Notes under the pieces: generated by a model | What the model was told of the DNA's origin: nothing | Database searches by the model: none | Seen by the model: only the letters and a program-made list of their open reading frames with translations | Translations under genes and position numbers: made by a program | Part shown: positions 3,330 to 54,640 of the stretch, in pieces | How the letters are laid out: each line of letters begins with the position of its first letter | Position numbering within the stretch: position 1 is the stretch's first letter | Virus record (IMG/VR): IMGVR_UViG_3300045988_176738 | Span: 32,001 to 96,000 of that record | From: a virus | DNA: 64,000 nt | Strand: one strand, 5' to 3'

Positions 3330-3425
3330 ATGGAAGATGAAATCTTAAATGCTGAAAGTGTTTTAGAAGCTAATAATTTTAATGAAGATGTTATTGAAGA
3401 AAGCGAGGTTGAAGATAATGGCTAA
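3330..3425 (+). CDS. 31-aa acidic leader peptide (uORF) translationally coupled to the endolysin
   Basis: Strong RBS aggtggtga, then ATG. It encodes MEDEILNAESVLEANNFNEDVIEESEVEDNG, and its stop overlaps the endolysin ATG at 3418 (ATGGCTAA). Confidence 0.35.
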   Translation: MEDEILNAESVLEANNFNEDVIEESEVEDNG

Positions 3426-4047
3426 TGTCAAACAATTTTCAAAAAAGCAAAGTGGAAGTAAAAAATTAAGTAATAATTTTAAAATAAAAGAATTTGCTTG
3501 CAAAGATGGTAGTGATACTATTTTAATAGATTTAGATATGATAAATGTTTTACAGAAGATAAGAGATCTTGGTGGTGCAATAACAATTAATAGTGCTTAC
3601 AGAACAGCTAGCTGGAATAGAAAACAAGGCGGAGCACGTAGAAGTTATCATTTGTATGGTCGTGCTTTTGATATAAGATGTGTAGGCTTAAAATTAGATG
3701 ATATATGTGCTATTGCTAATACATTAGGTGTTAAGGGAATTATTAGATATGGTACATTTGTACATATAGATAGTAGGACATCAACTTATCATGCTACTTC
3801 AAGTGGTACAAGAAAAAATTATGGTAAATATCATATTCCTTTTTCTACTAATATAAAAATAGGAAGTAGAGGAACAAATACTGGAATAGTTCAATTTAAA
3901 TTAAATAGTTTAGGCTATAATTGTGGAAATGCAGATGGAATTTGCGGTGAAAAGACAAAAAATGCAATAATAAATTTCCAAAAAAATAATGGTCTTGTAG
4001 CTGATGGAATCTGTGGAAAAAACACTTGGGCTAAACTTTTTGCATAA
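3382..4047 (+). CDS. endolysin: M15-family zinc D-Ala-D-Ala peptidase domain plus C-terminal peptidoglycan-binding (PG_binding_1) repeats; likely true start at ATG 3418
   Basis: SAYRTASWNRKQGGARRSYHLYGRAFDI is the peptidase M15 core. GICGEKTKNAIINFQKNNGLVADGICGKNTWAKL is a PG-binding domain. The RBS gaggttgaagat sits in front of ATG 3418 (MANVKQ..). Confidence 0.8.
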   Translation: MKMLLKKARLKIMANVKQFSKKQSGSKKLSNNFKIKEFACKDGSDTILIDLDMINVLQKIRDLGGAITINSAYRTASWNRKQGGARRSYHLYGRAFDIRCVGLKLDDICAIANTLGVKGIIRYGTFVHIDSRTSTYHATSSGTRKNYGKYHIPFSTNIKIGSRGTNTGIVQFKLNSLGYNCGNADGICGEKTKNAIINFQKNNGLVADGICGKNTWAKLFA

Positions 4048-5390: not shown

Positions 5391-5975
5391 ATGGATAAAT
5401 TATTAATAAAAATTGCCGATGTATATAATAATTACAGATTTAAACATAATAAGATAAATTCTGAAAATTATTCTGATAAAGATTATACATTTCGTGCAAA
5501 TCTATATAATATAATTGTATTTATTAGTTTTTGTTTGTTTGGAGCTTTAATAGGTCATTTTTTTGAGATGATTATGCTCTTTTTGGTCTTTAATGTTTTA
5601 AGAGATAAATCAAATGGAATACATAGTTATGGAAGTTTAAGTTTTTGTTTTGTATTTTCTCTCGCCTTATTCTTTATAACTTGTTTTTTATGTGATTTTA
5701 ATTTTCCTTACTACATTATTTCGCCATTTAGTATAATATTTACTTATATAAAATCTCCTTACATAAATGAAGGCTATGAACAAAAGCAGGTCGAAGATGA
5801 TATAAAGAAAGTTGATTATTTAATCTTGGCAATTTTATTTTGGATTTTATCATTTGCTCCTGTTGGAGATAATATGAGCAATGCTATAAATATAGCCATT
5901 ATATCTGTTTCGCTTTTTATGAGTAAGAAAGTTGAAAAACTATTTTTTGGAATAAAAGGCTTATTACATTTATAG
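5391..5975 (+). CDS. polytopic membrane protein
   Basis: A 194-aa protein with several hydrophobic helices and no catalytic motif recognised. Confidence 0.4.
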   Translation: MDKLLIKIADVYNNYRFKHNKINSENYSDKDYTFRANLYNIIVFISFCLFGALIGHFFEMIMLFLVFNVLRDKSNGIHSYGSLSFCFVFSLALFFITCFLCDFNFPYYIISPFSIIFTYIKSPYINEGYEQKQVEDDIKKVDYLILAILFWILSFAPVGDNMSNAINIAIISVSLFMSKKVEKLFFGIKGLLHL

Positions 5976-6729: not shown

Positions 6730-7383
6730 TTGGAGGTGATTTTTTTGCTATTATCTTTAGATATGTCGACAAAAAAAACAGGATTTTGCGTTTGGGATAA
6801 TTGTCAAATTATAAAATTTGGTTTAATAGAACCTAATATTAAATTTGAATCAGACAATAAAGATAAAGTTTTATATGCTAGAATTAAATTCCTTTATAAT
6901 GAATTAAAAAATATAATTGAAGAATATAAAATAACAGAATGTGTGTTCGAAGATGTTCCTGTAGGATATAATCAAAATTTAGATGTTGGTAAGTGGCTTT
7001 GTATAATTCATGGAATGTTAATTGCACTTTGTTATCGTTATAATATTAATTTTGTAAATTATCATCCGACGGAGTGGAGAAAAAATTGTGGACTTCTTAT
7101 CTCACAATATACATGTAATAAATGTGGAACTAAATTTTTAGATAATTCAGCAGATAAAGATGTCATTTGTCCAAACTGTAAAAATGATAAAAAAAGCACA
7201 TTTTCAAAAATACAACAAAATGATAGATATACATTAAAAGAAAGAGCGGTTAATGAAGTAAATAAATTATTTGAATTAAATTTAGTATATAAAAATAAAA
7301 CTAGCAAACTTAATGAAGATGATATTGCTGAAGCTATTTTAATAGGAATGTCATATTTAAAAAGTAAAAAAGGAAGTGATTAA
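6730..7383 (+). CDS. RuvC-like Holliday-junction resolvase with an inserted Zn-ribbon (possible TTG start at 6745)
   Basis: LSLDMSTKKTGFCVWD is the RuvC motif I, and DDIAEAILIG is the terminal catalytic Asp motif. C-x2-C...C-x2-C forms the Zn-ribbon. Confidence 0.75.
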   Translation: MEVIFLLLSLDMSTKKTGFCVWDNCQIIKFGLIEPNIKFESDNKDKVLYARIKFLYNELKNIIEEYKITECVFEDVPVGYNQNLDVGKWLCIIHGMLIALCYRYNINFVNYHPTEWRKNCGLLISQYTCNKCGTKFLDNSADKDVICPNCKNDKKSTFSKIQQNDRYTLKERAVNEVNKLFELNLVYKNKTSKLNEDDIAEAILIGMSYLKSKKGSD

Positions 7384-7385
7384 TT

Positions 7386-8396
7386 TTGGCAAGAAAACAA
7401 GAAGTATTAGATTTAACCAATCAATATTATGAAAATGCCAATGAAGAAAATAAAAGAATTGCAAATGAGTATTTAGAAAATGCTACGCATTTATCACCAG
7501 AAAGTTTAAAACAATATAAATCTGCGGCAAGAGTTTGGATTTCTTATATTAATAAATTTTTAAATAATAAAAACTTTAGAGATATTAAGCCTATGGAATT
7601 CCAGCGTTATCAAAATTGGCTTTATAATCAAGGAATATATGAAGCTAATATAAAGATGAAACGCAGTTTAGTGAGCAATTTAAACGAATATATGATTTTA
7701 TATTATGGTGATGAAGAAGAATATAAAACATTTCGTAATTTTGTAACTCAAGCAATTAAAGTGCCAGTAACAGGAAAAAAATATCAAAAAGAGCCATTAA
7801 CCATAGAAGAATATGAAAATTTATGTAAATATTTAGAAGAAAAAAAAGAATGGCAAAAACTTGCTTATTTGAAATTTACTTATGTATCAGGTTGTAGAAA
7901 GCGTGAATCTCTTAGTTTATTAAAGGAAGTTGTAAATTATAAACCAATAGAAAAAATGACAAAAGTAAAAGATGAAAATGGTGTGGAACATACAGTACCT
8001 ATAAAAAAGTATAAAACAAATCCAATTAAATGTAAAGGCAAAAAAGGAGATGCTCCTAGAAAATTAACTTTTGATGAAGATACTTTACATTATTTAAAAA
8101 AATGGCTTGCTGTGAGAGGCGAAGATGATTGTCCTTATATGTTTGTTGTTGGTAGAGGCGAAGGTGCTCATCAACCGAATGTAGCAACTCCTAACAATTG
8201 GTGTAAAGAGTTTGAACAATTTATTGGAAGAAGATTGCATCCACACCTTATTAGGTCTAGTCGTGCAACTGCATTAAAACTTAGTGGAAAAAGTATTGAA
8301 GCAATTCAAAAACTTCTTGGTCATAAATCTTCTGAAACAACAAAGATTTATATAGTTGAAGATGATGACGATGAAGAAGATGAATTATTTGTTTAA
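7386..8396 (+). CDS. int: tyrosine recombinase / phage integrase
   Basis: The catalytic core is present: CRKRES, HPHLIRSSRAT (HxxR) and KIYIVED (Tyr). It has a TTG start (MARKQEV) and an acidic C-terminal tail. Confidence 0.85.
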   Translation: MARKQEVLDLTNQYYENANEENKRIANEYLENATHLSPESLKQYKSAARVWISYINKFLNNKNFRDIKPMEFQRYQNWLYNQGIYEANIKMKRSLVSNLNEYMILYYGDEEEYKTFRNFVTQAIKVPVTGKKYQKEPLTIEEYENLCKYLEEKKEWQKLAYLKFTYVSGCRKRESLSLLKEVVNYKPIEKMTKVKDENGVEHTVPIKKYKTNPIKCKGKKGDAPRKLTFDEDTLHYLKKWLAVRGEDDCPYMFVVGRGEGAHQPNVATPNNWCKEFEQFIGRRLHPHLIRSSRATALKLSGKSIEAIQKLLGHKSSETTKIYIVEDDDDEEDELFV

Positions 8397-8408
8397 TGGA
8401 GGTATTTT

Positions 8409-8927
8409 ATGAATTTAAAATTAAAAGAAAAAAAACATATTATTAGATTTTTTGGTTTAAAACCAATAAAATTAAAATCTTATATTACAGATTCTGAAAA
8501 ACTTTTTATGTTAGAACAAATTCAAGAATCTTATGAAGAAAGATTGAAAGAAAAAGAAAATATTGTTCCTTTAATTGCAGGATTAGAAGCGGATATAGAT
8601 ATTTTAATTTGTACTCTTTCTGTTCAAGATATAGATTTTACAAATTTAAAATATTCGGATTTAAATAATTCTGGCTTTTTAAATTTCGTTAAAAAATATG
8701 TATCTAATTATGATGAAATCAGAAAATCTTGCTTTGATATGATTTCTCTTTTAAAAATTGAGAGTTTAATTCCTAATATGTCTGAATTTATGAATAAATT
8801 TTCTGATAATGCAACTTTTTTAGAAAATTTAGCAGAAGGAAAAACTAGCGAAGAAATTTCTGCACTAACAGAAGAATTAAAAAAAATAAATCAAGAGCAA
8901 ATAAAAAAAACAACTAAAAGTAAATAG
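8409..8927 (+). CDS. hypothetical protein (possible tail assembly chaperone by position upstream of the tape-measure gene)
   Basis: A 172-aa acidic C-terminus. The call rests on position only. Confidence 0.35.
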   Translation: MNLKLKEKKHIIRFFGLKPIKLKSYITDSEKLFMLEQIQESYEERLKEKENIVPLIAGLEADIDILICTLSVQDIDFTNLKYSDLNNSGFLNFVKKYVSNYDEIRKSCFDMISLLKIESLIPNMSEFMNKFSDNATFLENLAEGKTSEEISALTEELKKINQEQIKKTTKSK

Positions 8928-8936
8928 GTGAATTAA

Positions 8937-9476
8937 ATGGATATAACTAATAGTAAAATGTTATCAGATGTATTTAAAAGAGAAATACGTACGGCACTTA
9001 ATAACATTTCTAAAACTGTTTATGAACAACTCAGAAAAAATGTAAAAAATATTTATTCTAAATCGGAATCTATTTATTATGCTAGAACCTATGACTTCTT
9101 TAATGCTATAATTAAACCCGAACTAAAATCAGAAAAAGATGGAATTTCGGTCGTTATTGGTATAGATTATTCTCAAATTAAACCAAAAATAGAACATTCT
9201 GGTAGACTTAATGCTCATACAGATATAAATGGAAATACTGTTTGGAATGGCATTTCTATTAGCGAGGCTTTACTTTCTTGGCTTGACGAAGGTACAACTA
9301 ATTCTTCTATTCATAATCAACCTGAAACTAATTACTGGTATAATGTTATGGGTGCTAGAGGTTATGAAGCTGATGTAGAAATTGATTATAAAAAATTAGA
9401 TTCTATAATACAGAATGAAATAAAAAATACTTTTTCTAGGATAGGAAGTATTTCTGTTACAAAAGGCACTAATTAG
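8937..9476 (+). CDS. hypothetical protein
   Basis: A 179-aa ORF with no recognisable motif. Confidence 0.35.
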   Translation: MDITNSKMLSDVFKREIRTALNNISKTVYEQLRKNVKNIYSKSESIYYARTYDFFNAIIKPELKSEKDGISVVIGIDYSQIKPKIEHSGRLNAHTDINGNTVWNGISISEALLSWLDEGTTNSSIHNQPETNYWYNVMGARGYEADVEIDYKKLDSIIQNEIKNTFSRIGSISVTKGTN

Positions 9477-9494
9477 TTGAAAGGATGTGATTAA

Positions 9495-12400
9495 GTGGCT
9501 AATGAATATCAAATTAAGTTAAAAGCAGCTTTAGATGATTCTTCAATTAAGAAAGCTATTCAAAAAATTAACGATAAACAAACTATTGATTTTAAAGTTA
9601 AAGGCGATAAAGAAATATTAACTGTAACTAATAAAGTCAAAGATAATATGGGAAAAATAACTACCGAAGTTGAAAAATTTCAAAGAACTGCTGGTGGAAG
9701 TTTTGAATCTGTAGCAAGGTCTACAAAAACTGTATCAGGTGCAACAGATACATTGGCTGACCATTTTAAAAATGCAACAAATAATGTAACAGAATTTATG
9801 GAAGCTTTTGGATTATTTACTATAGCTCAAAAAGCAGTTGAAGAAATGGTTTCTGCGGTAAAAGATATGGACGATGCTTTAACTGAATATAAAAAGGTTT
9901 CAGATTTAACTGGAGCAAGTTTAGATTCTTTTATTCAAAAAGCAACTACAATTGGTGAAACTGTTGCTAGAACAAGTACCGAAATGGTAGAAGGTGCTAC
10001 TGAATTTAAAAAGTCTGGTTATAGTGATGAAGATTCACTTGAATTAGCAAGAATAGCGGCTTAATGATATAGGTCGAATATATAGGAATATATATAAAGA
10101 ATAGGGTGAATTGCTGGAAAACCCTTAGAGATTAACAAACTAAAACATAGTTAGTAATAACAAATGTGAATGTTTAAAAATTGTTAATATTGGGCAATCA
10201 GCAGCTAAGCAACTATTGAAATGTAGTTGAAAGTTCAACGACTATCGAAAGCAATCAGAAATTGATAAATGTAACTATATAAAATATAGAATAAGCTACT
10301 AAGTAGACGAAGCGAGTAGAGTAGAGCCAGGTGGTAGGTTTTGAATGAAATTAGTTCATATAAATCCTTTAAATCAAAGTGCCCTATACCTAATAAAAGG
10401 TAAAGATGTAGTCTTAGCTTATATGAAAATATAAGATATTAACACAATTAAAGAAATTTATGTTAATATAAACTGGAATATCAAAATGTTGCAGATGAAC
10501 AAATGAGTGCAGGAGACGCTGCTAATTTTATTATCGCTCAAATGAAAGCTTTTAATATTGAAGCAGGTAATGCTGAACATATAATTGATGCGGTTTTTAT
10601 GAGCTGCATGTAAAAAACAGGGTTAATTGCGGGAAAGTCTTTAGAGTTTTATATACCAAACAGTAATAGTAATATTATTGTGGCTTAATTAATTATTAAG
10701 GTATGGTAAAAAGTATAAAAATTAGATAATCCGCAGCTAAGCAACTATTGAAATATAGTTGAAAGTTCATCGACTATCGAAAGCAATCAGAAAAACTGAT
10801 AAATGTAACTATAGAAATATAGAATAAGCTACTAAGTAGACGAAGTGAGTAGAGTATATGGAAGTGCTATCCATAGAAATTCCCTGCCCTATAAAAATTT
10901 ATAGGTGAAGATATAGTCAATTCTTATATGAAAATATAAGTGATTAAATAAATTATAATAAAATGGAGTAATATGAAAAACAAAATAGATACACAATATG
11001 TTAAAAATTATTTAAGTAAATATTCAAAAACGGAACTTTTAGATGAGTATATTAATTATAAAAAAAAAATGAAGTTTAAATGCGAATGTGGTAATATCTT
11101 TTATAGAAATTTTAGTAATTTATTACGAAATAATTATTGTAAATGTAAAGATTGTACTACAAAAATAAGAGTTGATAATAGAAAGTTAAAAATTGAAGAA
11201 GTGGATAAAATTATAAAAGAACATGGATTGATAAGAATGGGCGAATTCATAAATACTCGCAATAAAATCCTCTGTATGAATAAAGATGGTTTTTTAGGAA
11301 AAATAAATATAACTAATTTAAAAAAAAATAAAATGTTTACAGTATTATCACCAAAATTTGACCCAGAATCAACGATTTATAACTCAAATAAAATAATTAA
11401 TAATAAAGGATGTAAAACTAAAGTTTTAAAATTTTTAAATAACGAATCTCTTCAAAATAGTAAAGTTTTGTGCAAATGTGAATGTGGAAATATATACGAT
11501 GTCAAACTTTCAAGTTTAATATATAACAATGCCTATAGGTGTAGAAGTTGTTCTAAAAATGAATCTAGTCTTGAAAAAAAAGTAGATTCTTTTTTAGTTT
11601 CAAATAATATATTATTTGAAAAGCAAAAAAGATTTAATGATTGTAAAGATAAAAATACACTTCCTTTTGATTTTTATATTCCATCTATGAACATATGTAT
11701 TGAGGTAGATGGTAAACAACATTATACAGTAATAAATTTTAGTAATAATTTTGAAATATCTAAATTACAATTTGAAAAAATAAAAAAACATGATATAATA
11801 AAAAATGAATATTGTAAACAAAAAAATATAAAACTAGTAAGAATTTCTTATTTAGAAATTCAAAATGATGAATATATAAAAATTTTAAATAATTTATTTA
11901 ATCTATCATAATTTGCAACTATGATATAATATAAAAGAAATGAAGTATCAAATAATTATGCTGTTTCTAGTGCGGATTTAGCAAACAATTTAGGCATTGT
12001 AAGTTCAACTATGGCGGCTGGTGATACAACTTTGGAACAAACCTTAGGATTGATGACGGGAATCGTTGAGATAACTAGAGATGCTTCAAGAGCAGCAAAT
12101 GCTTTGAAAACAATTGGACAAAGAATAAGAACAGTTTCTGAAGATGGAGAAAGCTATGTCGCTAAATTACAAAGTTCTTTTGATAAATATGGAATAACAG
12201 TAGACATAGTTAATAGAAAAACAGGTGAAATGGAATCAACCTACAATATTTTAAAAGGTATTGCTGCACAATGGGATAATTTAAATGATGCTCAAAAACA
12301 AGAAATTGGTGAATTAGCCGCTGGTAAACAAAGAATTACAGACTTTAACAATATAGAGTCCGTTCCAAGAAATTGGTTCGTAAAATAACATATCTAATTG

Positions 12401-15400
12401 CTGGAAATCCTTAAAGCTATACAACTAAAGCAGAATGATGAAATAAGCATAAATGTAAATGTTACGAAAGTAGAAAAAACAGTATAGATGGTGCATGGTT
12501 AAACCCTAAACACTTTAAAAATAGGAAATCAGCAGCCAAGCTACGAATAGTAGAAGGTTCAACGACTATCCCTGATGGGAGTAGGGCATAAGCTTAATGT
12601 TCGAAATGGTATGCACCTTTAAAAGGTGAAGATATAGTCTATACATATATGAAAATATATGAGAATTTTATCAAAAAAAAAAAAAAAAAGGAAGAGTGTA
12701 TTAAATAAGTAGAAAACTCGACATTCAATATATAACTGAATGTTTTAAAAATGAGGGTTATAAATTGACTTCAAAAGAATATAAAAATAATAAGGAAAAA
12801 TTAACAGTTGAAGATAAAAAAGGTTATAAATATCAAATAAATTATAATAACTTTATGTGTATGAAAAAGAAATCATTAACTAAATTTCATTATAGTAATA
12901 TTTATACACCTACAAATATACAACTATATTTTGATGAAAATAATATAAATTTAAAAATATTAGATATAACTCCAAGAAATATAAAAGTTAAAACTGACAA
13001 AATAAAATTTATATGTGAATGTGGAAAAATATTTGAATCCAATTTTCAAAATATATATTATAATAAAACAAAAAGATGTAAAAATTGTTCTCTTCGTAAA
13101 TCTGAACTTGAATGGAAAATTTCTGATTATTTAGATAAAAAAAAAGTTAAATATATAGAACAATATTCTTTTGATGATTGTAAAATAAAAAGAATTTGTA
13201 AATTTGATTTTTATTTACCAGATTATAATTTAATAATAGAAGTTAATGGCGAACAACATTATTATGAAAATTCTAATTTTAGATTGTCTCTATATGAACA
13301 ACAAATAAGAGATGATTATAAGAAAAAATATTGTATAAAAAATAATATAAAATATTTAGAAATTCCATTTTGGGATATCAGAAATAATAATAATTATAAA
13401 ATAAAAATTGATAAAATTCTAAGTTAGATTAGCGACCTAACTTAAATAAATTAGTAATGCTTTAATGCAAAACTTTGGAACAACATTAAATGCAGTTGAA
13501 GCAGCTGAGAATTCTATGGGTTCGGCTTCAAAAGAAAATGAAAGAGCAATGGATTCTCTTCAAGGAAAAATCCAAGAATTAAAAAGTGCTTTTGTTACAT
13601 TAGCAACTAATACAATAAATTCACAAACAGTTAAGTCTATTGTTAGTTTAGGAACAACTATGTTAAAGTTTGCTAATAGTGATGTAGGACAAGTCATAAT
13701 AAAAGTTTTAGGGCTTGCAACAGCATTAAAAACTGCTAGTAAGGCAATTTCTGCATTAGGTAAGTTTACGGGTATTTCTAGTGCAATGAAATCAGCAACA
13801 ACAGCATTTTCTGAAGCTTCTGCTGGTGCAGTTGGATTTACTGCTACATTAAAAGGGACAGCGGCAGCAACGAAATCATTAACTGTAGCTCTATTATCAA
13901 ATCCTTTATTTTGGGGAACAGTAGCAATTACAGCTGTTACTGGAATTATAAACAAGTATGAAGAATTACAACAAAAGAAACTAGATTTAGTTTCTTCAAC
14001 TCAAGAAGAAGTTAATTCTATTAATGATGAATCTAAAGAACTTGAAAATTTTTCTAATGAAATGAAAAATGCTTATGAATCATCAGATACATTAAAAGAG
14101 AAAAAAGATACTTTAAAAACATATCAACAGCAATTAATTGATAAATATGGGGACGAAATAACTGCTTTAACAGATGTTAAAAATGCAAATGATTTATTAA
14201 ATAAATCATATGATGAAACAGTTAATGTATTAAAACAAGTAGAAGAAGGTTTGTTAGATAAACAAGTTGCGGCATTAAATGAAAATAAAACAAGTAGAGA
14301 TGAACTTTTAAAAACAGAAACAACAAATATATTAATCTCTAAGAAACAATTGGAAAGTATAGCATCAAATGAAAAAGAATATAGTGCGCTTATTAGTTTA
14401 CTTGAAGATTCTGCTAGAAGTGCAGGAATGTTATTTTCTACTAATAAAGCTGGAGATAAGGTTTTAGCAGGTAATGCAGAAGCATTAGTAGATTTTTATA
14501 ATAAAGTAGAAAATGGGATTACAAGTTTAAATGATTCTTCTCAGACTGCTTGGGGAGAGATGAAAAATCATAGTGAATTTATGTTTAAATCTTTAGAGGA
14601 AGATTATAATAAATTTTCAGAATCTGCCAAACAAGCAGATGAATTAGAATATAAATCTTTCATAAAAAATCATCAAGATGAATTCAATACATATAAAGAT
14701 TTGTTAGAAAAAAGGCAAAAATTAATAGAGCAGTACAATTCTTCTAAAACAAATGTAGAAAGACAAAAAATAATAGAAGAAATAAATAAAATGCAACCTG
14801 ATGTTATGGATGCTTATTCAAAATTATTTACTCAAGCAAAATTGGGGGCAGTTCAAGGATTAAAAGATACTTTTGGTGAGGACTCTCAAAAGCTTCCCGA
14901 TTTAGTAGATTTTAGTGGAATATCTGGAGTTAATGCTACGGGTTTAGATACTTTAATGCAAAAATTAGAAAAATCAGCAATTTTAACAGAGGATTTAAAA
15001 AAACAAATTGTTGATATGAGACAAAAGATAGAAGCTTCTGGTAATACAACTGCATTAGAAAGTTATGACAAACAACTTTCAGATTTAGGTATTACAGTAA
15101 ATGATTCAGCTGTTTATTGGCAAAAATTAAGGGATACAGTAAAAAATACTGATGATTATTTTGAAGCAGCATCAGGAATATGGAAAACACTTAAAGATGA
15201 AGGTGTAGATATAACTGATGAAGCCATTACTGGGATGGTAGAAAAGTTACTTTCTGGTGAAACTTCTTTTAGTGATTTCTTTGATTTTTTAGAAGAAAAA
15301 GTTAAAGATGCTGGTGGAAATATTAGTGATACTGTTCTTCAAACATTAGATAATTCTGCGGCTGCACTTTCTGAAGCAATATCGGGTGTCGGACAAGTAC

Positions 15401-17202
15401 AAGAAAAAATAGATTCTTTAAATTCTGCTGTTGATGAATTTAATACTTTAGGAGGATTTTCAGCTGACACATTAAATTCTTTAATAAGTAATGACCTTTT
15501 GCAATATTTGACATTTACAGAAAATGGTGTTAAATTAAATACTGATGCCCTAAATCAAGAAACTGAAGCGGCAAAACAAAATGCACTTGCACAACTTCAA
15601 ACTGCTTATGCAGCTGATGTTTTAGCACTTGCAAATGGTGAAGTAGATAAAATGAGTACTGGTGCAAAATCAGCATTACAACAATTTGAGGCGAATGCAA
15701 GTACTGTTGGTGCAACTGCAAATGCTCAAACAGCTGGTTTATACAATATGGCAACAGCAATGGCAGCTGTTTCAGCTGCTGGTGGAGATACTTCTGCCTT
15801 ACAACAAAATGAAAAAAAAGTTCAGGCATTAAATAGTTATTATAACAAACTAACAACAAGTATAAGTAATATATCTATTAAAGGGACAAAAGCCAGTAAA
15901 AGTGCTGGAACAAAAGGTTCTAGTGGGAAAAAAGGCTCTAGTGGGAAAAAAGGCTCAAGTTCAAAAAGTACAAAAGATACTTGGAAAGAAGAATTTGAAT
16001 CAAAATATAAAGCTTTACAACATGAACTTAATATGGAACAAATTACTGAAGAGCAATATACTGACGAATTAGAATCTCTTTATAAAAAATATTTTTCAAA
16101 TAAAACTAAATATGCAGAAGAATATAATAAGTATGAAGAAGAAGTTTATAAAAAAAGAAAAGAAATAGTAAAAGATGCTTTCCAAAAAGAATTAGATGAA
16201 CTTGACCATAAACAAACTATGAATATGATTTCAGAAAGAGATTATACCGATGAAGTTGAAAAACTTTATAAGAAGTATTTTGCCAATAGAAAAGAATTCT
16301 TAGATGAATATACTAAATATGAAGAAAAAGTATATGAAAGTAGAGCGTCTTATTTAAAGGAAGATTATGATGCTGCGATTTCAGTTGCGACTAATGTTAT
16401 TGATAAACAGATTTCAGAATTAGAAAAACAAAAAAGTGCACTTGAAAAGGTAAATGATGAAACAGATAAAGCAATAGAATTAGAAAAATTAAAAAATGAT
16501 TTATATAATGCACAAAATCAAAAAAATATAAGAACATATTATGCTGGCTTAGGCTGGGTATGGGAAGCTGATAAAAAGGCAATTAGTGACGCAGAAAAAG
16601 CACTTAAAGATTTTGAAGTTGAACAAAAAACTGATGAAATAGATAAACAAATAGATTCTTTAAATGAGTTAAAAGATAACTGGAGTTCAATTGCAAGTGA
16701 TTATGAATCTCAACAAGACAGGATTAATGCAGCAGTTAAATTTGGCTCGGATTTTGAACAAAAAGTTTTAAGCGGAAGATTAGATTATTTAAAATCTTTC
16801 GTTCAATCTTATAATTATGAAATGGACAAATTAAATCCTTTAACTGGTGCACAACAATATGCAAAATCACAATTGACACCTAATTCTTCTTATGCTAATG
16901 GCACTACTAGTGCAATTGGTGGTCTTTCCCTTGTTGGAGAAAAAGGTGCTGAATTAAGAGTTCTTAATCAAGGCGATGGAATTATACCAGCAGAATTAAC
17001 TGAAAATTTAATGAAATGGGGAACAATTGACCCTATTAATATGGTTAAAGCTGGAGGAATTCCTTTGGCTAATAATAACAATAATACATCAAATAATATG
17101 AATTTTAATATTTCTAATTTAACATTACCAAATGTATCAGATAGTAATAGTTTTATAAGTGGTTTGAGACAATATGCCACAACACATAATAAAAGGGGCT
17201 AA
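9495..17202 (+). CDS. tail tape-measure protein (TP901-family core), split into 4 exons by three group I introns
   Basis: The exons are about 9495-10061, 10476-~10597, 11938-12345 and 13455-17202. Joined, they give ..ELARIAA|EYQNVADEQMSAGDAANFIIAQMKAFNIE..IIDAV|NEVSNNYAVSSADLANNLGIVSSTMAAGDT..AGKQRITDF|NALMQNFGTTLNAVEAAENSMGSASKENE.., which is continuous tape-measure core sequence. The long final exon has coiled-coil, SGKKG repeats and a Gly/Asn-rich C-terminus. Confidence 0.8.
10062..10475 (+). mobile_element. group I intron 1 in the tape-measure gene (ORF-less, 414 nt)
   Basis: The 5' splice site follows U10061, where exon cggcu pairs with the IGS ggucg to form P1 with a 10-nt loop. G10475 is the omega G. 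Core blocks attgctggaaaacccttagag, gttgaaagttcaacgactatcgaaagcaatcag and taactatataaaatatagaataagctactaag are shared with the other introns. The exon frame resumes exactly at the splice. Confidence 0.7.
10598..11937 (+). mobile_element. group I intron 2 in the tape-measure gene (HE-containing; 5' boundary +/-10 nt)
   Basis: It has the same conserved core (attgcgggaaagtctttagag, gactatcgaaagcaatcag, taactatagaaatatagaataagctactaag) plus ORF 10973-11911. G11937 is the omega G, followed by an in-frame exon (NEVSNN..). Confidence 0.65.
10973..11911 (+). CDS. intron-encoded homing endonuclease, DUF559/Vsr-like PD-(D/E)xK domain with N-terminal Zn-ribbon repeats
   Basis: FDFYIPSMNICIEVDGKQHY matches the DUF559 (Vsr-fold) motif. 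There are two CECGN..C..C Zn-knuckle repeats. It is a paralogue of ORF 12765-13427. Confidence 0.65.
   Translation: MKNKIDTQYVKNYLSKYSKTELLDEYINYKKKMKFKCECGNIFYRNFSNLLRNNYCKCKDCTTKIRVDNRKLKIEEVDKIIKEHGLIRMGEFINTRNKILCMNKDGFLGKINITNLKKNKMFTVLSPKFDPESTIYNSNKIINNKGCKTKVLKFLNNESLQNSKVLCKCECGNIYDVKLSSLIYNNAYRCRSCSKNESSLEKKVDSFLVSNNILFEKQKRFNDCKDKNTLPFDFYIPSMNICIEVDGKQHYTVINFSNNFEISKLQFEKIKKHDIIKNEYCKQKNIKLVRISYLEIQNDEYIKILNNLFNLS
12346..13454 (+). mobile_element. group I intron 3 in the tape-measure gene (HE-containing, 1109 nt)
   Basis: The 5' splice site follows U12345, where exon gacuu pairs with IGS gaguc to form P1 with a 10-nt loop taacaatata; compare intron 1's loop taatgatata. Core attgctggaaatccttaaag is present. 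G13454 is the omega G, and the exon-4 frame resumes (DF|NALMQNF). Confidence 0.7.
12765..13427 (+). CDS. intron-encoded homing endonuclease, DUF559/Vsr-like (TTG start)
   Basis: FDFYLPDYNLIIEVNGEQHY is the DUF559 motif, CECGKIF..C..C is a Zn-ribbon, and the RBS is gaggg. Confidence 0.65.
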   Translation: MTSKEYKNNKEKLTVEDKKGYKYQINYNNFMCMKKKSLTKFHYSNIYTPTNIQLYFDENNINLKILDITPRNIKVKTDKIKFICECGKIFESNFQNIYYNKTKRCKNCSLRKSELEWKISDYLDKKKVKYIEQYSFDDCKIKRICKFDFYLPDYNLIIEVNGEQHYYENSNFRLSLYEQQIRDDYKKKYCIKNNIKYLEIPFWDIRNNNNYKIKIDKILS

Positions 17203-17219
17203 ATGCCCCTCAAGAAAGG

Positions 17220-18617
17220 GTGATAGTTTTGATATTTAGACCAGTTGACGCATATCCAAATAATGGTATTTTTATTGATGCCAGTCAATATAATGAATTT
17301 ACAGTCAAAGTTCAAGGAGCTTCTTCGCAAGTTAATGCTTATCAAATATTTTTTTATGATGCAAATACTTTTGAACTTATTAATGAAGATAGTGTTAAAA
17401 ATGATTTGTCAAAAATATATGTTTCAGGTGAAACAATAGAAATACCTGTGTTTAAAGGTACTTTAAAAAACGATATGTCTTATTATTGGGTTGTTAGGCT
17501 ATTTCAAACAAACCCCGATATGTTTATATATAAAGCAAAAGTTATAACACAAACAAGTAATACAATAATTAACATTCCTATGATTTCGGGAGTTACAAAA
17601 GGTATGTATGTTGAATATTTAGGTTCATATCATAAAATTACAGATATTCAAAATCAGACAGAAGTTTCTCCTCAAGTTACTCAAATTACAATAGAAGATA
17701 GTATTACGGGAGTAGAAGGTGAATATATAAGAATATATTCTGATTATGTAGATAGTATAGAATTCCCATTTTATACAGAAACAAATATTGTAGCAAGATT
17801 TTCAGATAATATTCCTACAATTGTCACTTCAAGAACACAAGATTTTAAAATGGAAGTTTCTAGTGGAACTAGTATAAAATGGTATAGATTTGTTTTATCA
17901 GATGAAAGTGGTGACATCATTGATGATACAGGGAAAATATATAATAGTTTATTGACATATTCTTTTGATGGTTTTGTAAGTGATAATAATTATATTATAA
18001 AAGGATATGTTTGTGATTCTAATAATAGAACTGTTACAACAGATGATTATTCTTTCTTTGTTGAATATAATGCTCCCGATTTAAATTTACCAGCAACAAC
18101 AACGATAGATTACGATAATGACGCAATAAAAGTTAGTTGGGTAGATGATGCCTATTCTGAAGGAAGAGCAACAGGAGAATATTCTTTTGTAGATAGTCCA
18201 ATAGACGGCAAGAAAGAATTAAAAATAAATAGCGGAACAATTATTTATGATAATATAAGTGGTTATCCTCTTAATACTTCAGAAGAATTCACAATTTTTG
18301 TTGATGTTGAATTTGACCAAGATAAAAGAGGAAAATTAATTGAACTTTTAAAAAAAAATGGTAATTATTATATATATGTAAAAGAAAACAATATTTATGT
18401 TGTTAAAGATGATGAAGAAACTTTATTAGGAAAAGTTTTAAACACAGAAAAAGGTTGTTTGCAGGCTAATAATACAGCTGAGGAAAAAGTAGCTTATATT
18501 TGGAATGATGAAGAAGTTTGGGATGATACAAAATATTGGACAGAAAGTTTACCTTTTAGTCAAAGGTTTAAAATTACAATTTTAGCAAATGAAACTTTAA
18601 TTGAGGAGGTAGTATAA
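17220..18617 (+). CDS. tail structural protein (distal tail region)
   Basis: 465 aa immediately after the tape-measure gene, overlapping the next gene by ATGA. The call rests on position. Confidence 0.4.
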   Translation: MIVLIFRPVDAYPNNGIFIDASQYNEFTVKVQGASSQVNAYQIFFYDANTFELINEDSVKNDLSKIYVSGETIEIPVFKGTLKNDMSYYWVVRLFQTNPDMFIYKAKVITQTSNTIINIPMISGVTKGMYVEYLGSYHKITDIQNQTEVSPQVTQITIEDSITGVEGEYIRIYSDYVDSIEFPFYTETNIVARFSDNIPTIVTSRTQDFKMEVSSGTSIKWYRFVLSDESGDIIDDTGKIYNSLLTYSFDGFVSDNNYIIKGYVCDSNNRTVTTDDYSFFVEYNAPDLNLPATTTIDYDNDAIKVSWVDDAYSEGRATGEYSFVDSPIDGKKELKINSGTIIYDNISGYPLNTSEEFTIFVDVEFDQDKRGKLIELLKKNGNYYIYVKENNIYVVKDDEETLLGKVLNTEKGCLQANNTAEEKVAYIWNDEEVWDDTKYWTESLPFSQRFKITILANETLIEEVV

Positions 18618-20209
18618 TGGCTTATAATGGAATAGTTCTTTTTGATGATGTAAAATATAATTATCTTGTTGTAAAAAAAGGAAGTGCAACCCAAGAAGAA
18701 TTAACTAATTTTAAGAAACCTGATTATGTTCCTAAATGGGAAGAAGTTTCAAAAGCTATGATTTTAGCAAATTTCGATAATACATTGGTTTCAAGCTATA
18801 TCTCTGGTTTACCAAAACAATTTGATTCTTGGGCTGTATATAGGCAAAAAATTGGAGATAAAGTTCAAAAATTTGTTGGAAAAGTTGAAAGAAATAGACT
18901 ATTTATAATAGATTATTTAGTTGGGAATCAAACTGAATATATTTATTATGTTATTTCAGAAACAACAGGTGAAATGGGTGTCTCTATGCAATCACCTATA
19001 ATAAAAACTGACTGGTGGAATTATTCTTTAACAGGATTAAAACAAATTGGTGATAATGTATATGTTGCTGATAAAGTTTGGTTATTTGATTTTAATGTTG
19101 CTTCTACAGAAATTGTTCAAAATACAGATGTTTCTGTTTTCAAAACATTTACTAGAATTCCTAAAATATCTAAAGGATTGAATAATTATCAAACGATGGG
19201 TATTAGTTGTCTTTTGGGAGGCGTAAATTCTGCTACAGAAAAATATGAAGATGATATTGCTCTATTACAAGATTGGCAAAATTTTGTTGCAGAAGATATT
19301 TTATGTTTATGGAAAGATAGAAAAGGTTCAATAAAAGTTGGTGTTGTTACTGATTCTCCTAATGCAAAATATACAGATGAAACGACAGAACAAATAACAA
19401 CAATTACTTTCAATTTTGTTGAAACAAAAGATATTGATGATATTTCTGTTTATAATAGTCAAGATAATATTATTTCTAATGCTTATATAGATGTTACAAC
19501 TTCAGTAGGACAAAAAATTACAGTAAGTGGAATTGGTACAAAAACAGCAAAAGATGTAGTTACTCGCTTTACTGTACTTTCAAATACAGAATATACTGTT
19601 AGTGTAAATGAAAAAGAAGGTTATATAACACCAAAGTCACAATTAATTACAACTGGTGATGAAGGAAGTGTTACAAATATTACATTTGAATATAAAATTG
19701 ACCCAAATTATAAACCTAAAGAAACTATTTCTATTGAAATTACAAAAACTTGGGATGATAATTATGATTTATATGCTTATCGTCCAAAAAGTATAACAAT
19801 TGATTTATATGCTAATGGTGTTTTTAAAGAAAGTAAAGACACAACTTCTTCACAAGATTGGAAATGTAATTTTACTAATTTAGATAAATATGACAATAAC
19901 AATCAGTTAATTACTTATACGGTTAATGAAGGAAATGTTGAAAAATACACAAAAGAAATAACAGGATATACAATAAAAAATACATTTCAGGGATTAACAA
20001 TAGATACACCAGTGACAGAAGAATCAGCAAAAGCTTTCGTAGAATCTGATATGGTTAGAAGAGGCTATACATCAAATGATTTTTCAATAGGAAATGTAGT
20101 CGACACTGGTAATGGCTATTATATTCAAGTAAGAGACCCTAATACTTCAATGACAATATTTTCTTACACAATTTATAGTACAGGTAAAGTTGAAATAGAA
20201 GAAAGCTAG
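18617..20209 (+). CDS. tail protein, distal-tail (Dit)-like with C-terminal extension
   Basis: 530 aa. The N-terminal layout resembles siphophage distal tail proteins, and the C-terminal beta-rich extension could bind carbohydrate. Confidence 0.4.
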   Translation: MAYNGIVLFDDVKYNYLVVKKGSATQEELTNFKKPDYVPKWEEVSKAMILANFDNTLVSSYISGLPKQFDSWAVYRQKIGDKVQKFVGKVERNRLFIIDYLVGNQTEYIYYVISETTGEMGVSMQSPIIKTDWWNYSLTGLKQIGDNVYVADKVWLFDFNVASTEIVQNTDVSVFKTFTRIPKISKGLNNYQTMGISCLLGGVNSATEKYEDDIALLQDWQNFVAEDILCLWKDRKGSIKVGVVTDSPNAKYTDETTEQITTITFNFVETKDIDDISVYNSQDNIISNAYIDVTTSVGQKITVSGIGTKTAKDVVTRFTVLSNTEYTVSVNEKEGYITPKSQLITTGDEGSVTNITFEYKIDPNYKPKETISIEITKTWDDNYDLYAYRPKSITIDLYANGVFKESKDTTSSQDWKCNFTNLDKYDNNNQLITYTVNEGNVEKYTKEITGYTIKNTFQGLTIDTPVTEESAKAFVESDMVRRGYTSNDFSIGNVVDTGNGYYIQVRDPNTSMTIFSYTIYSTGKVEIEES

Positions 20210-31744: not shown

Positions 31745-32440
31745 CTAATTTAAAAATATATTAAACAAATCAGTTATTGCTTTACTCAAAATATCTTTTG
31801 ACTTTTCTTCTTCCGCATTATCTACTTTTTTTAATATATCAATCATTCTTTGTAAATCATCTTTAGATTTTTCTGTGTTTGATTTTGTTTCATCATTCAT
31901 ATCTTTATCTTTTTTATTTTCTGATAAAGTATCTAGTTTTATTGTTTCTGATTTTTCTTTCTCTGCACAATCATACTTTTCACATGAAGAACATTTTTTT
32001 TCATTATCACTTTCTTCTTCTTTTAAATCCTCACGAAATATATGCCCTTCATAATAATTTGGACAAACGAACATATTATATCCACTCTTATCTTTTATGA
32101 TGAATACCATTGTATTTCCACTACACATAAAATCATAATTTTTATTTTCTTTTTTAATTCTATTAAGTAGTTCTTTTATCCATATATTTATTTGTTTATT
32201 ATCTATTTCCACGCCCTTTTTACCATCAAAATGATAAAAATGTGTTGGATATTCTATATTGTTAAAGTCAAGTTTTAAATCTTCTTCATCATACAAATCA
32301 ATATTTTTGTTGCAAACTGGACATTTCAAATAAGGAATTCCAAATTCTCCATATTTTATATCCTCTTTTTCATATTGTATTTTTGTATCGCAATCCTCAC
32401 ATCTAACTATTCTTCCATTTTCTTCATTTAAAATTTTCAT
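31745..32440 (-). CDS. hypothetical Zn-ribbon protein with an acidic, coiled C-terminus
   Basis: CEDC..C..C motifs. Confidence 0.35.
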   Translation of the reverse strand: MKILNEENGRIVRCEDCDTKIQYEKEDIKYGEFGIPYLKCPVCNKNIDLYDEEDLKLDFNNIEYPTHFYHFDGKKGVEIDNKQINIWIKELLNRIKKENKNYDFMCSGNTMVFIIKDKSGYNMFVCPNYYEGHIFREDLKEEESDNEKKCSSCEKYDCAEKEKSETIKLDTLSENKKDKDMNDETKSNTEKSKDDLQRMIDILKKVDNAEEEKSKDILSKAITDLFNIFLN

Positions 32441-53792: not shown

Positions 53793-53851
53793 AATTTATC
53801 ACTTCTTTCATAATTATCATTTTTTTTGTTTATTTTATATATTCACATTTA

Positions 53852-54640
53852 TCAATAATTAATCCGATAATAATAATAAATAAAATTAACAGGATCCATA
53901 ACATTCTTATTTATATATGTTTTTAATGATTTCATATTCGTTTGTCTCTTAAATTTTTTTATTAATTTATCTGTATTTAATTCATTTAAATTGTCAGTCA
54001 TATAAAGATACGCTCCAGCAAAACATGGTCTATAAAGATTTGCTCCTTCTAAATTTATATCTTCTAAATTTGCTCCATAAAAACTTGTTCTATAAAGATT
54101 TGCACCCTCTAAATTTGCACCTTTTAAATTTGCTCCAGCAAAATTTACATCTTTCAAATTTGCATTCTTTAAGTTTGCTCCTTCTAGGTTTGCATATGTT
54201 AAATCCGACAGAAAAAGGTCTGCACCTTCTAAGTTTATTCTCTGTAAATCTGCTCCACTAAGCTTTGCACTTTGCAATTGTGAACCTTCTAAATTTGCTT
54301 CATTTAAGTCTTCACCTTGTTCAATTGCACGTTCTAACGCTTCTTTAATTGTATTTGCTATACTTGTTTTATATAATATCTTATTATATTTATTTTTTAT
54401 TTGTATTTCTATTAAACCTTCTTCGATTAAATCATGTAATAATTCATTTTGTAATTCTTCAAAATTGTCCCCACAAAAATCTTTAACATCTATTAATATT
54501 GTTCCATCTCCAAATATTGCTATATAATCGTTATCTTTTAAATCTTTTATATATGCTTTATGATAACCATCATCTTTTACTAATCTATATCCGAATTTTT
54601 CAAGTTCTTTTAAATCTATATCTTTTCTTATTCTATACAT
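53852..54640 (-). CDS. pentapeptide-repeat protein (N-terminal unknown domain + C-terminal A(N/D)LxG repeats)
   Basis: At least 16 consecutive pentapeptide units (ANLEGANLKNANLKDVNFAGANLKGANLEGANLYR...). Confidence 0.8.
   Translation of the reverse strand: MYRIRKDIDLKELEKFGYRLVKDDGYHKAYIKDLKDNDYIAIFGDGTILIDVKDFCGDNFEELQNELLHDLIEEGLIEIQIKNKYNKILYKTSIANTIKEALERAIEQGEDLNEANLEGSQLQSAKLSGADLQRINLEGADLFLSDLTYANLEGANLKNANLKDVNFAGANLKGANLEGANLYRTSFYGANLEDINLEGANLYRPCFAGAYLYMTDNLNELNTDKLIKKFKRQTNMKSLKTYINKNVMDPVNFIYYYYRINY

Follow-up and report, generated by a model that had tools for sequence, protein, structure and literature searches.

A TP901-type tape-measure gene of a gut phage split by three predicted group I introns, two of them bearing homing endonuclease genes

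How can a phage make a full-length tail tape-measure protein from a gene whose reading frame closes after 189 codons? The question is raised by positions 9495-17202 of a 64,000-nucleotide (nt) stretch of viral DNA (positions 32,001 to 96,000 of IMG/VR record IMGVR_UViG_3300045988_176738), here called the window, whose coordinates are used throughout and whose carrier is a gut phage of about 100 kb. The answer that emerges, and that has been borne out by every test run, is that the tape-measure protein (TMP) appears to be encoded by one TP901-type gene split by three group I introns, two of which bear homing endonuclease genes (HEGs). From the DNA sequence, the probability that all three inserts are removed by group I splicing, and that full-length TMP depends on it, is put at about 0.9.

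The frame opened by the GTG at 9495 forms an open reading frame (ORF, 9495..10064, plus strand) that is closed by the stop codon at 10062-10064, and exon 1 (9495..10061) comprises its 189 codons, ending in GCGGCU at phase 0. An earlier note on this DNA had claimed that the frame stops at 10064 and resumes at three later points, which proved correct. Exon 2 (10476..10594, plus strand, 119 nt) reads EYQNVADE...HIIDA and ends with an additional GU; exon 3 (11938..12345, plus strand, 408 nt) runs from phase 1 to phase 2, reads ...NEVSNNYAVSS...GKQRITD with an additional UU, and holds the core of the PF10145 domain; and exon 4 (13455..17202, plus strand) consists of a U, 1248 codons and a stop, and encodes the long coiled-coil and C-terminal part. 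Joined, the four exons give a coding sequence of 4842 nt and 1613 amino acids (aa) with zero internal stops, and the junction peptides quoted in the earlier note, ARIAA/EYQNV, IIDAV/NEVSNNYAVSS and ITDF/NALMQNF (the slash marking the junction), are right. By itself exon 1 shows a weak match to PF10145 (16 bits, profile 2-42), whereas the first 546 aa of the joined protein have a single PF10145 match of 88.3 bits (residues 148-353, profile 2-196 of 201) and a single match of 102.9 bits to TIGR01760, 'tape_meas_TP901' (residues 113-418), exceeding the cut-offs of 33.2 and 28.8 bits, respectively. The continuous matches thus appear only once the exons are joined, as expected if joining restores a TP901-type core, and since the junctions at residues 189/190, 228/229 and 364/365 are within the matched range, all three lie inside the PF10145/TIGR01760 matches.

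Comparison with relatives places the junctions at the same points. A tblastn search of GenBank phages with the joined N-terminus retrieved uninterrupted homologues, each in one piece, from the Enterocloster phages CB473P1, CB457P2 and PMBT24 (38% identity, 97-99% coverage), and in a protein alignment with metagenomic homologues the junctions are free of gaps. In that alignment ARIAA/EYQNVADE of the window corresponds to AKIASLYQNVADE in the homologues, exon 2 is colinear with their AKIASLYQNVADEQMSAG...HIVDAINEVSNNYAVSS, the junctions IIDAV/NEVSNNYAVSS and AGKQRITDF/NALMQNF are likewise colinear, and the start of exon 4, F/NALMQNF, matches AALMRNY and similar sequences. P0001 (loci L001 and L002), which at 76% identity is the closest relative, is uninterrupted at all three window sites, and the joined coding sequence aligns to its intron-less L001 allele, at 79% nucleotide identity, with no gaps across positions 567, 686 and 1094. 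A megablast search of GenBank phages with the whole gene gave zero matches, and a scan of genome contigs with the exon-4 protein gave zero relatives.

Might the four pieces nonetheless be made as separate polypeptides that assemble without RNA splicing, with the endonuclease genes standing free between them? Gene callers do annotate the TMP pieces as ORFs of 189, 125 and 1245 aa, both here and in related contigs, and Geobacillus virus E3 is annotated with an 'N-terminal' and a 'C-terminal' TMP gene. Start codons are missing, however, at the 5' ends of exons 2 and 3: the 119 nt of exon 2 have no start codon of their own and end in phase 2, and the sole ATG of exon 3 is 24 codons in. Moreover, the breaks all interrupt a single conserved domain, which relatives have in continuous form, each break is flanked by the first intron helix (P1) and a terminal G, and the gap between the two E3 genes itself contains a match of 48.7 bits to the Rfam group I intron model RF00028 (KP144388.1; L015 2160-2461). 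Separate translation is in consequence considered extremely improbable, and one spliced gene the better account of these exons.

What kind of element separates them? Intron 1 (10062..10475, plus strand) is ORF-less, 414 nt long, and has a core at 10062-10435, a 3'-terminal hairpin at 10436-10469 and the end AAACUG. Intron 2 (10595..11937, plus strand, 1343 nt) has its core at 10595-10940, a terminal hairpin at 11904-11926 and the end AUAAAAG, and intron 3 (12346..13454, plus strand, 1109 nt) has its core at 12346-12661, a terminal hairpin at 13421-13443 and the end AAAUUAG. The covariance-model search that had been proposed as a check matched RF00028 to all three inserts, with 74.4 bits for intron 3 (12336-12661, E 5e-17), above the gathering score of 50 bits, 41.8 bits for intron 2 (10585-10940, E 2e-8) and 34.9 bits for intron 1 (10052-10435, E 2.4e-6), the latter two over the full model (1-253) on the plus strand. 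In the 'evalue' mode of Rfam the intron-3 type was listed in no run, and one 72-kb run in gathering mode skipped the identical copy on contig L003; given this uneven sensitivity for group I introns with long inserts, missing Rfam matches at locus L014 and in the nrdD inserts, both described below, are not counted as absence.

The helices expected of group I introns were located by string search followed by a check of complementarity. The P1 pairings are CGGCU/GGUCG in intron 1, AUGCGGU/GCUGCAU in intron 2 and GACUU/GAGUC in intron 3, with all positions paired and the final exon U facing a G in all three; each intron has a terminal G (G10475, G11937, G13454), so that the claim of a guide complementary to the exon end, a terminal G·U pair and an intron ending in G is true of all three. 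A common P1 architecture with a 5-nt exon end and a loop of the form uaa(u/c)(g/a)auaua, which had also been described, is a property of introns 1 and 3 alone, in which the supposed 10-nt loop is actually a 2-bp extension of P1 with a 6-nt loop; intron 2 pairs 7 exon nucleotides and has the loop UUUAUG after a U-A pair. P3, P4, P6, P6a, P7 (GACUA/UAGUC), P8 and P9 were found, fully complementary, in all three introns, P9 having 7 bp and a GAAA loop in each, while P5 was located in intron 1 only and P2 is absent from intron 2. As read from the located helices, the differences among the introns are compensatory in P3, P6a, P8 and P9, exemplified by the P3 variants AUAGGG/CCCUAU, CAGGG/CCCUG and CAUAUC/GGUAUG and by CUUAUAU/AUAUAAG as against CAUAUAU/AUAUAUG in P9. 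Separating GACUA from the 3' strand of P3 are hairpin-bearing segments of about 135 nt in intron 1, 105 nt in intron 2 and 40 nt in intron 3; these constitute P7.1/P7.2, whose position between P7 and P3' we take, by the Michel-Westhof scheme, to be the mark of subgroup IA. An unconstrained free-energy fold of intron 1 recovered P1, P2, P3, P4-P5a, P6a, P8, P9 and the 3' hairpin (z = -2.5).

The Rfam model ends with the P9 hairpin (10435, 10940 and 12661), and the 3' splice sites are placed farther downstream (10475, 11937 and 13454). Splicing at the end of the model would leave in-frame stop codons; the frame is restored at G10475, G11937 and G13454, of which G10475 is the sole G past the in-frame stop at 10464-10466 that both restores the frame and fits the homologue alignment. 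Each 3' splice site is preceded by a perfect terminal hairpin of 7-9 bp, and because this hairpin overlaps the stop codon of the HEG ORF in introns 2 and 3, the HEG ORFs must be located 3' of the catalytic core, with P9 on one side and the terminal hairpin on the other. The nrdD (sunY) intron of phage T4 is likewise of IA type, with an ORF 3' of the catalytic core and a distant 3' splice site, in a different host gene and with a different endonuclease family.

The proposed course of expression is then as follows. The late transcript would fold as three ribozymes, in each of which the guide sequence would pair with the last 5-7 exon nucleotides (P1), with a U·G pair at the cut. Free guanosine would attack the 5' splice site, the terminal G of the intron would then dock, and the exons would be ligated. 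Ribosomes would read beyond codon 189 only after all three excisions, yielding the full-length protein that would set tail length.

Several observations weigh against this account. Introns 1 and 2, with 34.9 and 41.8 bits, are under the Rfam gathering score, and the z-score of the intron 3 core fold (-1.4) is not significant. The 3' splice sites are about 1.0 kb (intron 2) and 0.8 kb (intron 3) downstream of the core, and the P10 pairing is weak: intron 1 has about 6 bp with an offset of 2 nt, intron 2 has 3 bp, and intron 3 pairs 4 of 5. No meaningful sequence-level match to PDB chains was obtained with the HEGs, either singly or as a 54-sequence profile, and splicing itself we infer. The low scores and weak P10, together with the lack of P2 in intron 2 and an apparent +1 frameshift in nrdD of the same genome, could also describe a decayed TMP pseudogene in a defective phage, with the inserts as dead, non-splicing intron relics. 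Against such decay, the four exons are open and retain strongly conserved residues, the core helices are fully complementary, both HEGs keep all family-invariant residues, and contigs from several independent metagenome samples, one of them 99.8 kb long, contain the region again at 94-99.97% identity, as would be the case for a replicating phage. A pseudogene is thus rated highly improbable.

The distant 3' splice sites and weak P10, along with the fact that joining exon 2 directly to exon 4 (GU + U) keeps the frame and gives a total of 4434 nt, might alternatively reflect introns that need a maturase-like factor of host or phage, or that splice only in part, resulting in a throttled supply of TMP or in an in-frame product from which exon 3 has been skipped. 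Nothing in the sequence demands such help, however, and the skipping of exon 3 removes 136 residues of the conserved PhageMin_Tail domain; this possibility is given no more credence than separate translation. Given the remoteness of the three 3' splice sites and the weakness of P10, it is also imaginable that splicing efficiency sets TMP supply and that the introns are more than passengers, with exon 3 skipping providing a protein 136 residues shorter and intron content, which differs among strains of this phage, modulating tail assembly or length, although this is thought very unlikely. Exon skipping by group I ribozymes has reportedly been observed in orf142 of Staphylococcus phage Twort, a different gene that is said to have three group I introns. 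Excision of all three introns, with the exons joined in order, remains the favored reading of the window.

Are the three introns copies of one another? Introns 1 and 2 are close paralogues, with a common block of 151 nt at 89% identity and about 83% identity over ungapped columns, and the differences between them are mainly in P1/P2, the P5 extensions and one insertion in the P7.2 region. Intron 3, which shares merely 36-63-nt stretches with the other two, is a distant cousin. The suggestion in the earlier note that all three are closely related was therefore too strong, only introns 1 and 2 having the 151-nt block, and of the conserved blocks it had attributed to all three the first is indeed common to them, while gttgaaagttca..cgaaagcaatcag and taactata..gagtagagta are confined to introns 1 and 2. 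The 5' exon ends of these two introns are alike (GCGGCU and GCGGU, each directly ahead of its intron), and the intron 1/2 type may have spread between the two sites, perhaps by ectopic copying within the gene. Intron 1 has no HEG and, as a near paralogue of intron 2, differs from it by a re-tuned guide sequence. A simple deletion of the HEG from intron 2, suggested by the occurrence of TAATAT both ahead of the HEG1 start and at the end of intron 2, was entertained as the origin of intron 1 and dropped as unproven because the 34-nt tail is just about 59% identical in very AT-rich sequence. An exact search of IMG/VR with a 33-nt block of introns 1 and 2 had zero matches. A 20-nt pattern of the same introns occurs in at least 119 IMG/VR contigs, at none of which loci a TMP relative is encoded, so that this ribozyme type is widespread in other genes.

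The two ORFs within the introns provide a plausible means of spread. HEG1 (10973..11911, plus strand, 312 aa), in intron 2, has two zinc-ribbon modules and a C-terminal Vsr-like nuclease domain, and HEG2 (12765..13427, plus strand, 220 aa), in intron 3, has one zinc ribbon and a Vsr-like nuclease domain. A GGAG stands 7 nt ahead of the ATG of HEG1, and HEG2 starts with TTG and has GAGGG 6 nt upstream. The two proteins share 31% identity over 215 aa, HEG1 having the extra N-terminal copy of the zinc ribbon, and both belong to phrog_559 (HEG1 3.5e-50, HEG2 7.5e-38) and phrog_9084 'homing endonuclease' (HEG1 1.8e-29) in PHROGs. They had been described as DUF559/Vsr-like, of which the second term has been upheld by structure (below) and the first has not, as Pfam DUF559 (PF04480) scores 14.2 bits with HEG1 (E 0.041, cut-off 20.6), has zero match with HEG2, and is absent among the 25 Pfam families listed for 54 HEG relatives. 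The families that those relatives do match include DUF4379 (32/54), DUF723 (23/54), DUF2726 (14/54) and PvuRts1I-like_N (5/54), the last of which is also a sub-threshold Pfam match for the HEGs of the window. In an alignment of the 54 relatives, D148, F149, E159, G162, H165 and D183 (HEG2 numbering) are invariant, E116 is at least 90% conserved and four Cys are nearly invariant; HEG1 and HEG2 both retain every family-invariant residue.

An AlphaFold model of HEG2 (pLDDT 89.1) supports a PD-(D/E)XK fold of the Vsr type for these endonucleases, HEG1, which the model does not cover, being tied in by its 31% identity to HEG2. Foldseek ranked the catalytic domain of I-Bth0305I first (3r3p_B; E 4.8e-4, probability 1.00, target TM 0.69) and Vsr itself second (1cw0). 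I-Bth0305I is the prototype of the 'EDxHD' family borne by phage group I introns and has the catalytic residues E170, D196, H213 and D222 (Taylor et al. 2011, PMC3239194; PDB 3R3P). Like it, the HEGs of the window are intron-borne in a phage and have conserved acidic and His residues and a C-terminal Vsr-like nuclease domain for which it is the best structural match. Compared by spacing rather than by superposition, the D-to-H distance is 17 in both HEG2 and I-Bth0305I (D196-H213), and the H-to-D distance is 18 in the former and 9 in the latter. Unlike the N-terminal region of I-Bth0305I (NUMOD2/HTH), those of HEG1 and HEG2 consist of one or two four-Cys zinc ribbons, CxxG...CxxC. In mixed infections, HEG1 and HEG2 would be expected to cut intron-less TMP alleles of related phages near the insertion site, and repair of the cut allele would copy the intron in.

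Is such mobility reflected in the phage population? TMP introns show presence/absence polymorphism. HEG2 is identical on 12 gut-metagenome contigs, one contig of 99.8 kb (L003) is 99.97% identical to window 6767-19427, so that the whole three-intron region is present, and seven shorter contigs, drawn from other samples, align to the window with 94-99.97% identity over intron 3 or over the HEG2 portion of it. Four metagenome contigs of the phage break exactly at an A17 homopolymer (12673-12689) between the ribozyme core of intron 3 and HEG2. Locus L007 (ERZ945656), whose exon 3 is 99% identical to that of the window, has a further intron (L007 1-214) that ends just before codon 267, at window position of about 12052, and carries the C-terminus of a HEG resembling the same Vsr-like family; the TMP gene of this strain would thus have at least one more intron than that of the window. 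In the relative represented by L001 and L002, the TMP gene is interrupted instead at codon 286, by a group II intron of about 705 nt that has no ORF (L001 2619-3325; RF02004 100 bits, RF00029 57 bits); over its last 202 nt L001 has 99% identity with the window, a sign of recent recombination.

A survey of 80 IMG/VR loci encoding relatives of the TMP N-terminal domain, in which an insertion was defined as at least 150 nt, extends this picture. At least one insertion is present at 51 of the 80 loci, seven of which have two and one of which, L213 (IMGVR_UViG_3300028797_000139), has three, each with group I motifs. Among the 60 insertions in total, 38 contain the ordered P7...P7' motif pair, as opposed to only 12 such pairs in 1.12 Mb outside insertions. 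The insertions cluster at window codons of about 160/167, 230-232, 243, 266-269, 274-276, 282-288, 344, 358-369 and 397-400. Site 2 of the window falls on the 230 cluster, where L209 has an intron-2-type ribozyme with a decayed HEG at the same codon, and site 3 is within the 358-369 cluster, where L172 and L173 have ORF-less introns of the intron-3 type and L206 a truncated HEG; site 1 (codon 189/190) was not seen elsewhere among the 80 loci. IA motifs were not found in the 575-1066-nt insertions at codons 160/167, and neither the L001 group II intron, used as a BLAST query, nor a domain-V pattern matched anything in the insertions without group I motifs, several of which open with a P1-like hairpin. 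In Enterocloster phage CB457P1 (OP172753.1; L014 2517-3696) an insert of 1.17 kb in the TMP gene bears an ORF of 157 aa, the P1-like hairpin CAGGU/GCCUG and the motif AATTGCGG; Rfam gave it zero matches, with the uneven sensitivity already mentioned. CB457P1 and Geobacillus virus E3 are cultured phages, and their TMP interruptions are unannotated. More modestly than any regulatory role, the TMP N-terminal domain of related gut phages may be a hot spot with at least nine recurrent sites, occupied by group I introns and by at least one group II intron.

To what extent is this architecture new? The earlier note held introns in a phage structural gene to be unusual and three in one tape-measure gene remarkable, a claim contradicted by published systems as well as by the 51 of 80 related contigs with insertions. 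In Bacillus cereus-group prophages, the group I introns TMP-IVS1, TMP-IVS2 and TMP-IVS3 occupy three TMP sites, IVS1 and IVS2 being 80%-identical paralogues adapted via P1 and some copies having no complete HEGs (Tourasse and Kolsto 2008, PMC2504315). The resemblance to the window as set out in that report is close, in that the same gene is interrupted at three sites in its conserved part by IA-type introns of patchy distribution, two-site paralogues differ mainly in P1 and the guide (80% identity for IVS1/IVS2, about 83% for introns 1 and 2 here), and copies occur both with and without complete HEGs; by contrast, the prophages described there have at most two sites per gene as against three here, and hosts and phage lineages differ (PMC2504315). 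The TMP gene has been termed a 'frequently interrupted gene', and the TMP transcript of Vibrio phage ICP1 contains four exons plus three introns, and its splicing was demonstrated by RNA sequencing (RNA-seq) and reverse-transcription PCR (RT-PCR) (Barth et al. 2023, PMC10448857). As presented in that work, ICP1 is like the phage of the window in its four exons and three introns, in having, depending on the isolate, one or two HEGs within introns and one or two introns that are empty, and in a variable intron content with junctions kept; it differs in its HNH-3 HEGs and Gram-negative host, as opposed to the Vsr-like HEGs found here, and in that its splicing was established experimentally, whereas that of the window is deduced from sequence (PMC10448857). 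Spliced group I introns are known from mycobacteriophage capsid and tail genes as well (Pope et al. 2013, PMC3706429). The architecture is a fresh instance of an already described kind, and what is particular to it is the presence of three group I introns together, the zinc-ribbon Vsr-like HEGs and the dense intron sites in this phage group. No new question is opened, since the literature already contains both TMP introns and a TMP gene with three introns and demonstrated splicing.

The locus nonetheless has practical implications. Gene callers yield three TMP fragments and two 'hypothetical' proteins here and do likewise in most related gut-phage contigs, which means that the tail genes of a large phage group are systematically mis-annotated, and tail-length estimates drawn from TMP length would be wrong. 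The locus also offers a compact natural series of re-tuned paralogous introns and of HEG-bearing, HEG-decayed and HEG-free copies at the same or clustered sites, in strains that differ in intron content and alongside a 76%-identical relative that uses a group II intron instead. This series fits the cycle of invasion, decay and loss already proposed for such elements.

A second gene of the window appears to be similarly affected. The anaerobic ribonucleotide reductase gene nrdD (29421..24397, minus strand) is in six pieces, four of which cover 3-156, 164-221, 285-384 and 407-681 of the NF006732 profile, with two further pieces, an inferred mid-gene exon and the C-terminal exon, outside profile scoring. 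All five gaps contain an ordered P7...P7' pair (28735/28609, 27489/27437, 27065/26968, 26474/26323 and 24595/24541), parts of the inserts are 73-89% identical to the TMP introns, and two of them hold HNH_3 ORFs (28194..27496 and 25252..24578). The exons 29421..28924, 28581..28408, 27396..27202 and 26941..26615 join as an open frame at U/...G/ sites, and a P1 helix with terminal U·G is present in each of introns B, C and D. None of the five inserts is listed by Rfam, with its uneven sensitivity. With the three of the TMP gene, these appear to bring the number of group I introns to about eight in 64 kb, and the phage lineage may accordingly be an unusually dense intron host, its TMP gene holding three introns and its nrdD gene about five.

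In exon 5 of nrdD (about 26200..26194, minus strand; UUA C GGA) one frame reads ...YYGRFNL and the +1 frame GVCTINLPYIAL..., there being one extra C (c26197). The site is identical in the window and in six independent metagenome contigs, one of them without the neighbouring intron, and its recurrence in seven assemblies rules out an assembly error; either a pseudogene lesion or a +1 frameshift decoded at a rare CGG codon could account for it. The nrdD introns also vary by strain (L219-L224): L219 and L221 are without the first and last, and in L224 the first intron contains an additional ORF of 223 aa and the fourth is missing.

Elsewhere in the window, a 34-nt stretch (53856..53823, minus strand) just downstream of the ORF 54640..53852 shares 85% identity with the P7.1 region in intron 1 and may be a further intron or intron fragment. 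Upstream of the TMP gene, a RuvC-like resolvase (6730-7383) and a tyrosine recombinase (7386-8396; PF00589, 1.5e-16), both on the plus strand, directly precede two small genes that stand ahead of TMP, and the order of RuvC followed by TMP is also found in related contigs. Between the endolysin gene (3382-4047) and the tail genes lies an AgrB homologue (5391-5975, plus strand; PF04647, E 5e-16), a family concerned with the processing of quorum-sensing peptides. The G+C content of the window is 23-29%, and the PolIII-alpha-like ORF that it contains shares about 54% identity with those of the Clostridioides phages phiCD211 and phiCDIF1296T and the C. botulinum phage c-st.

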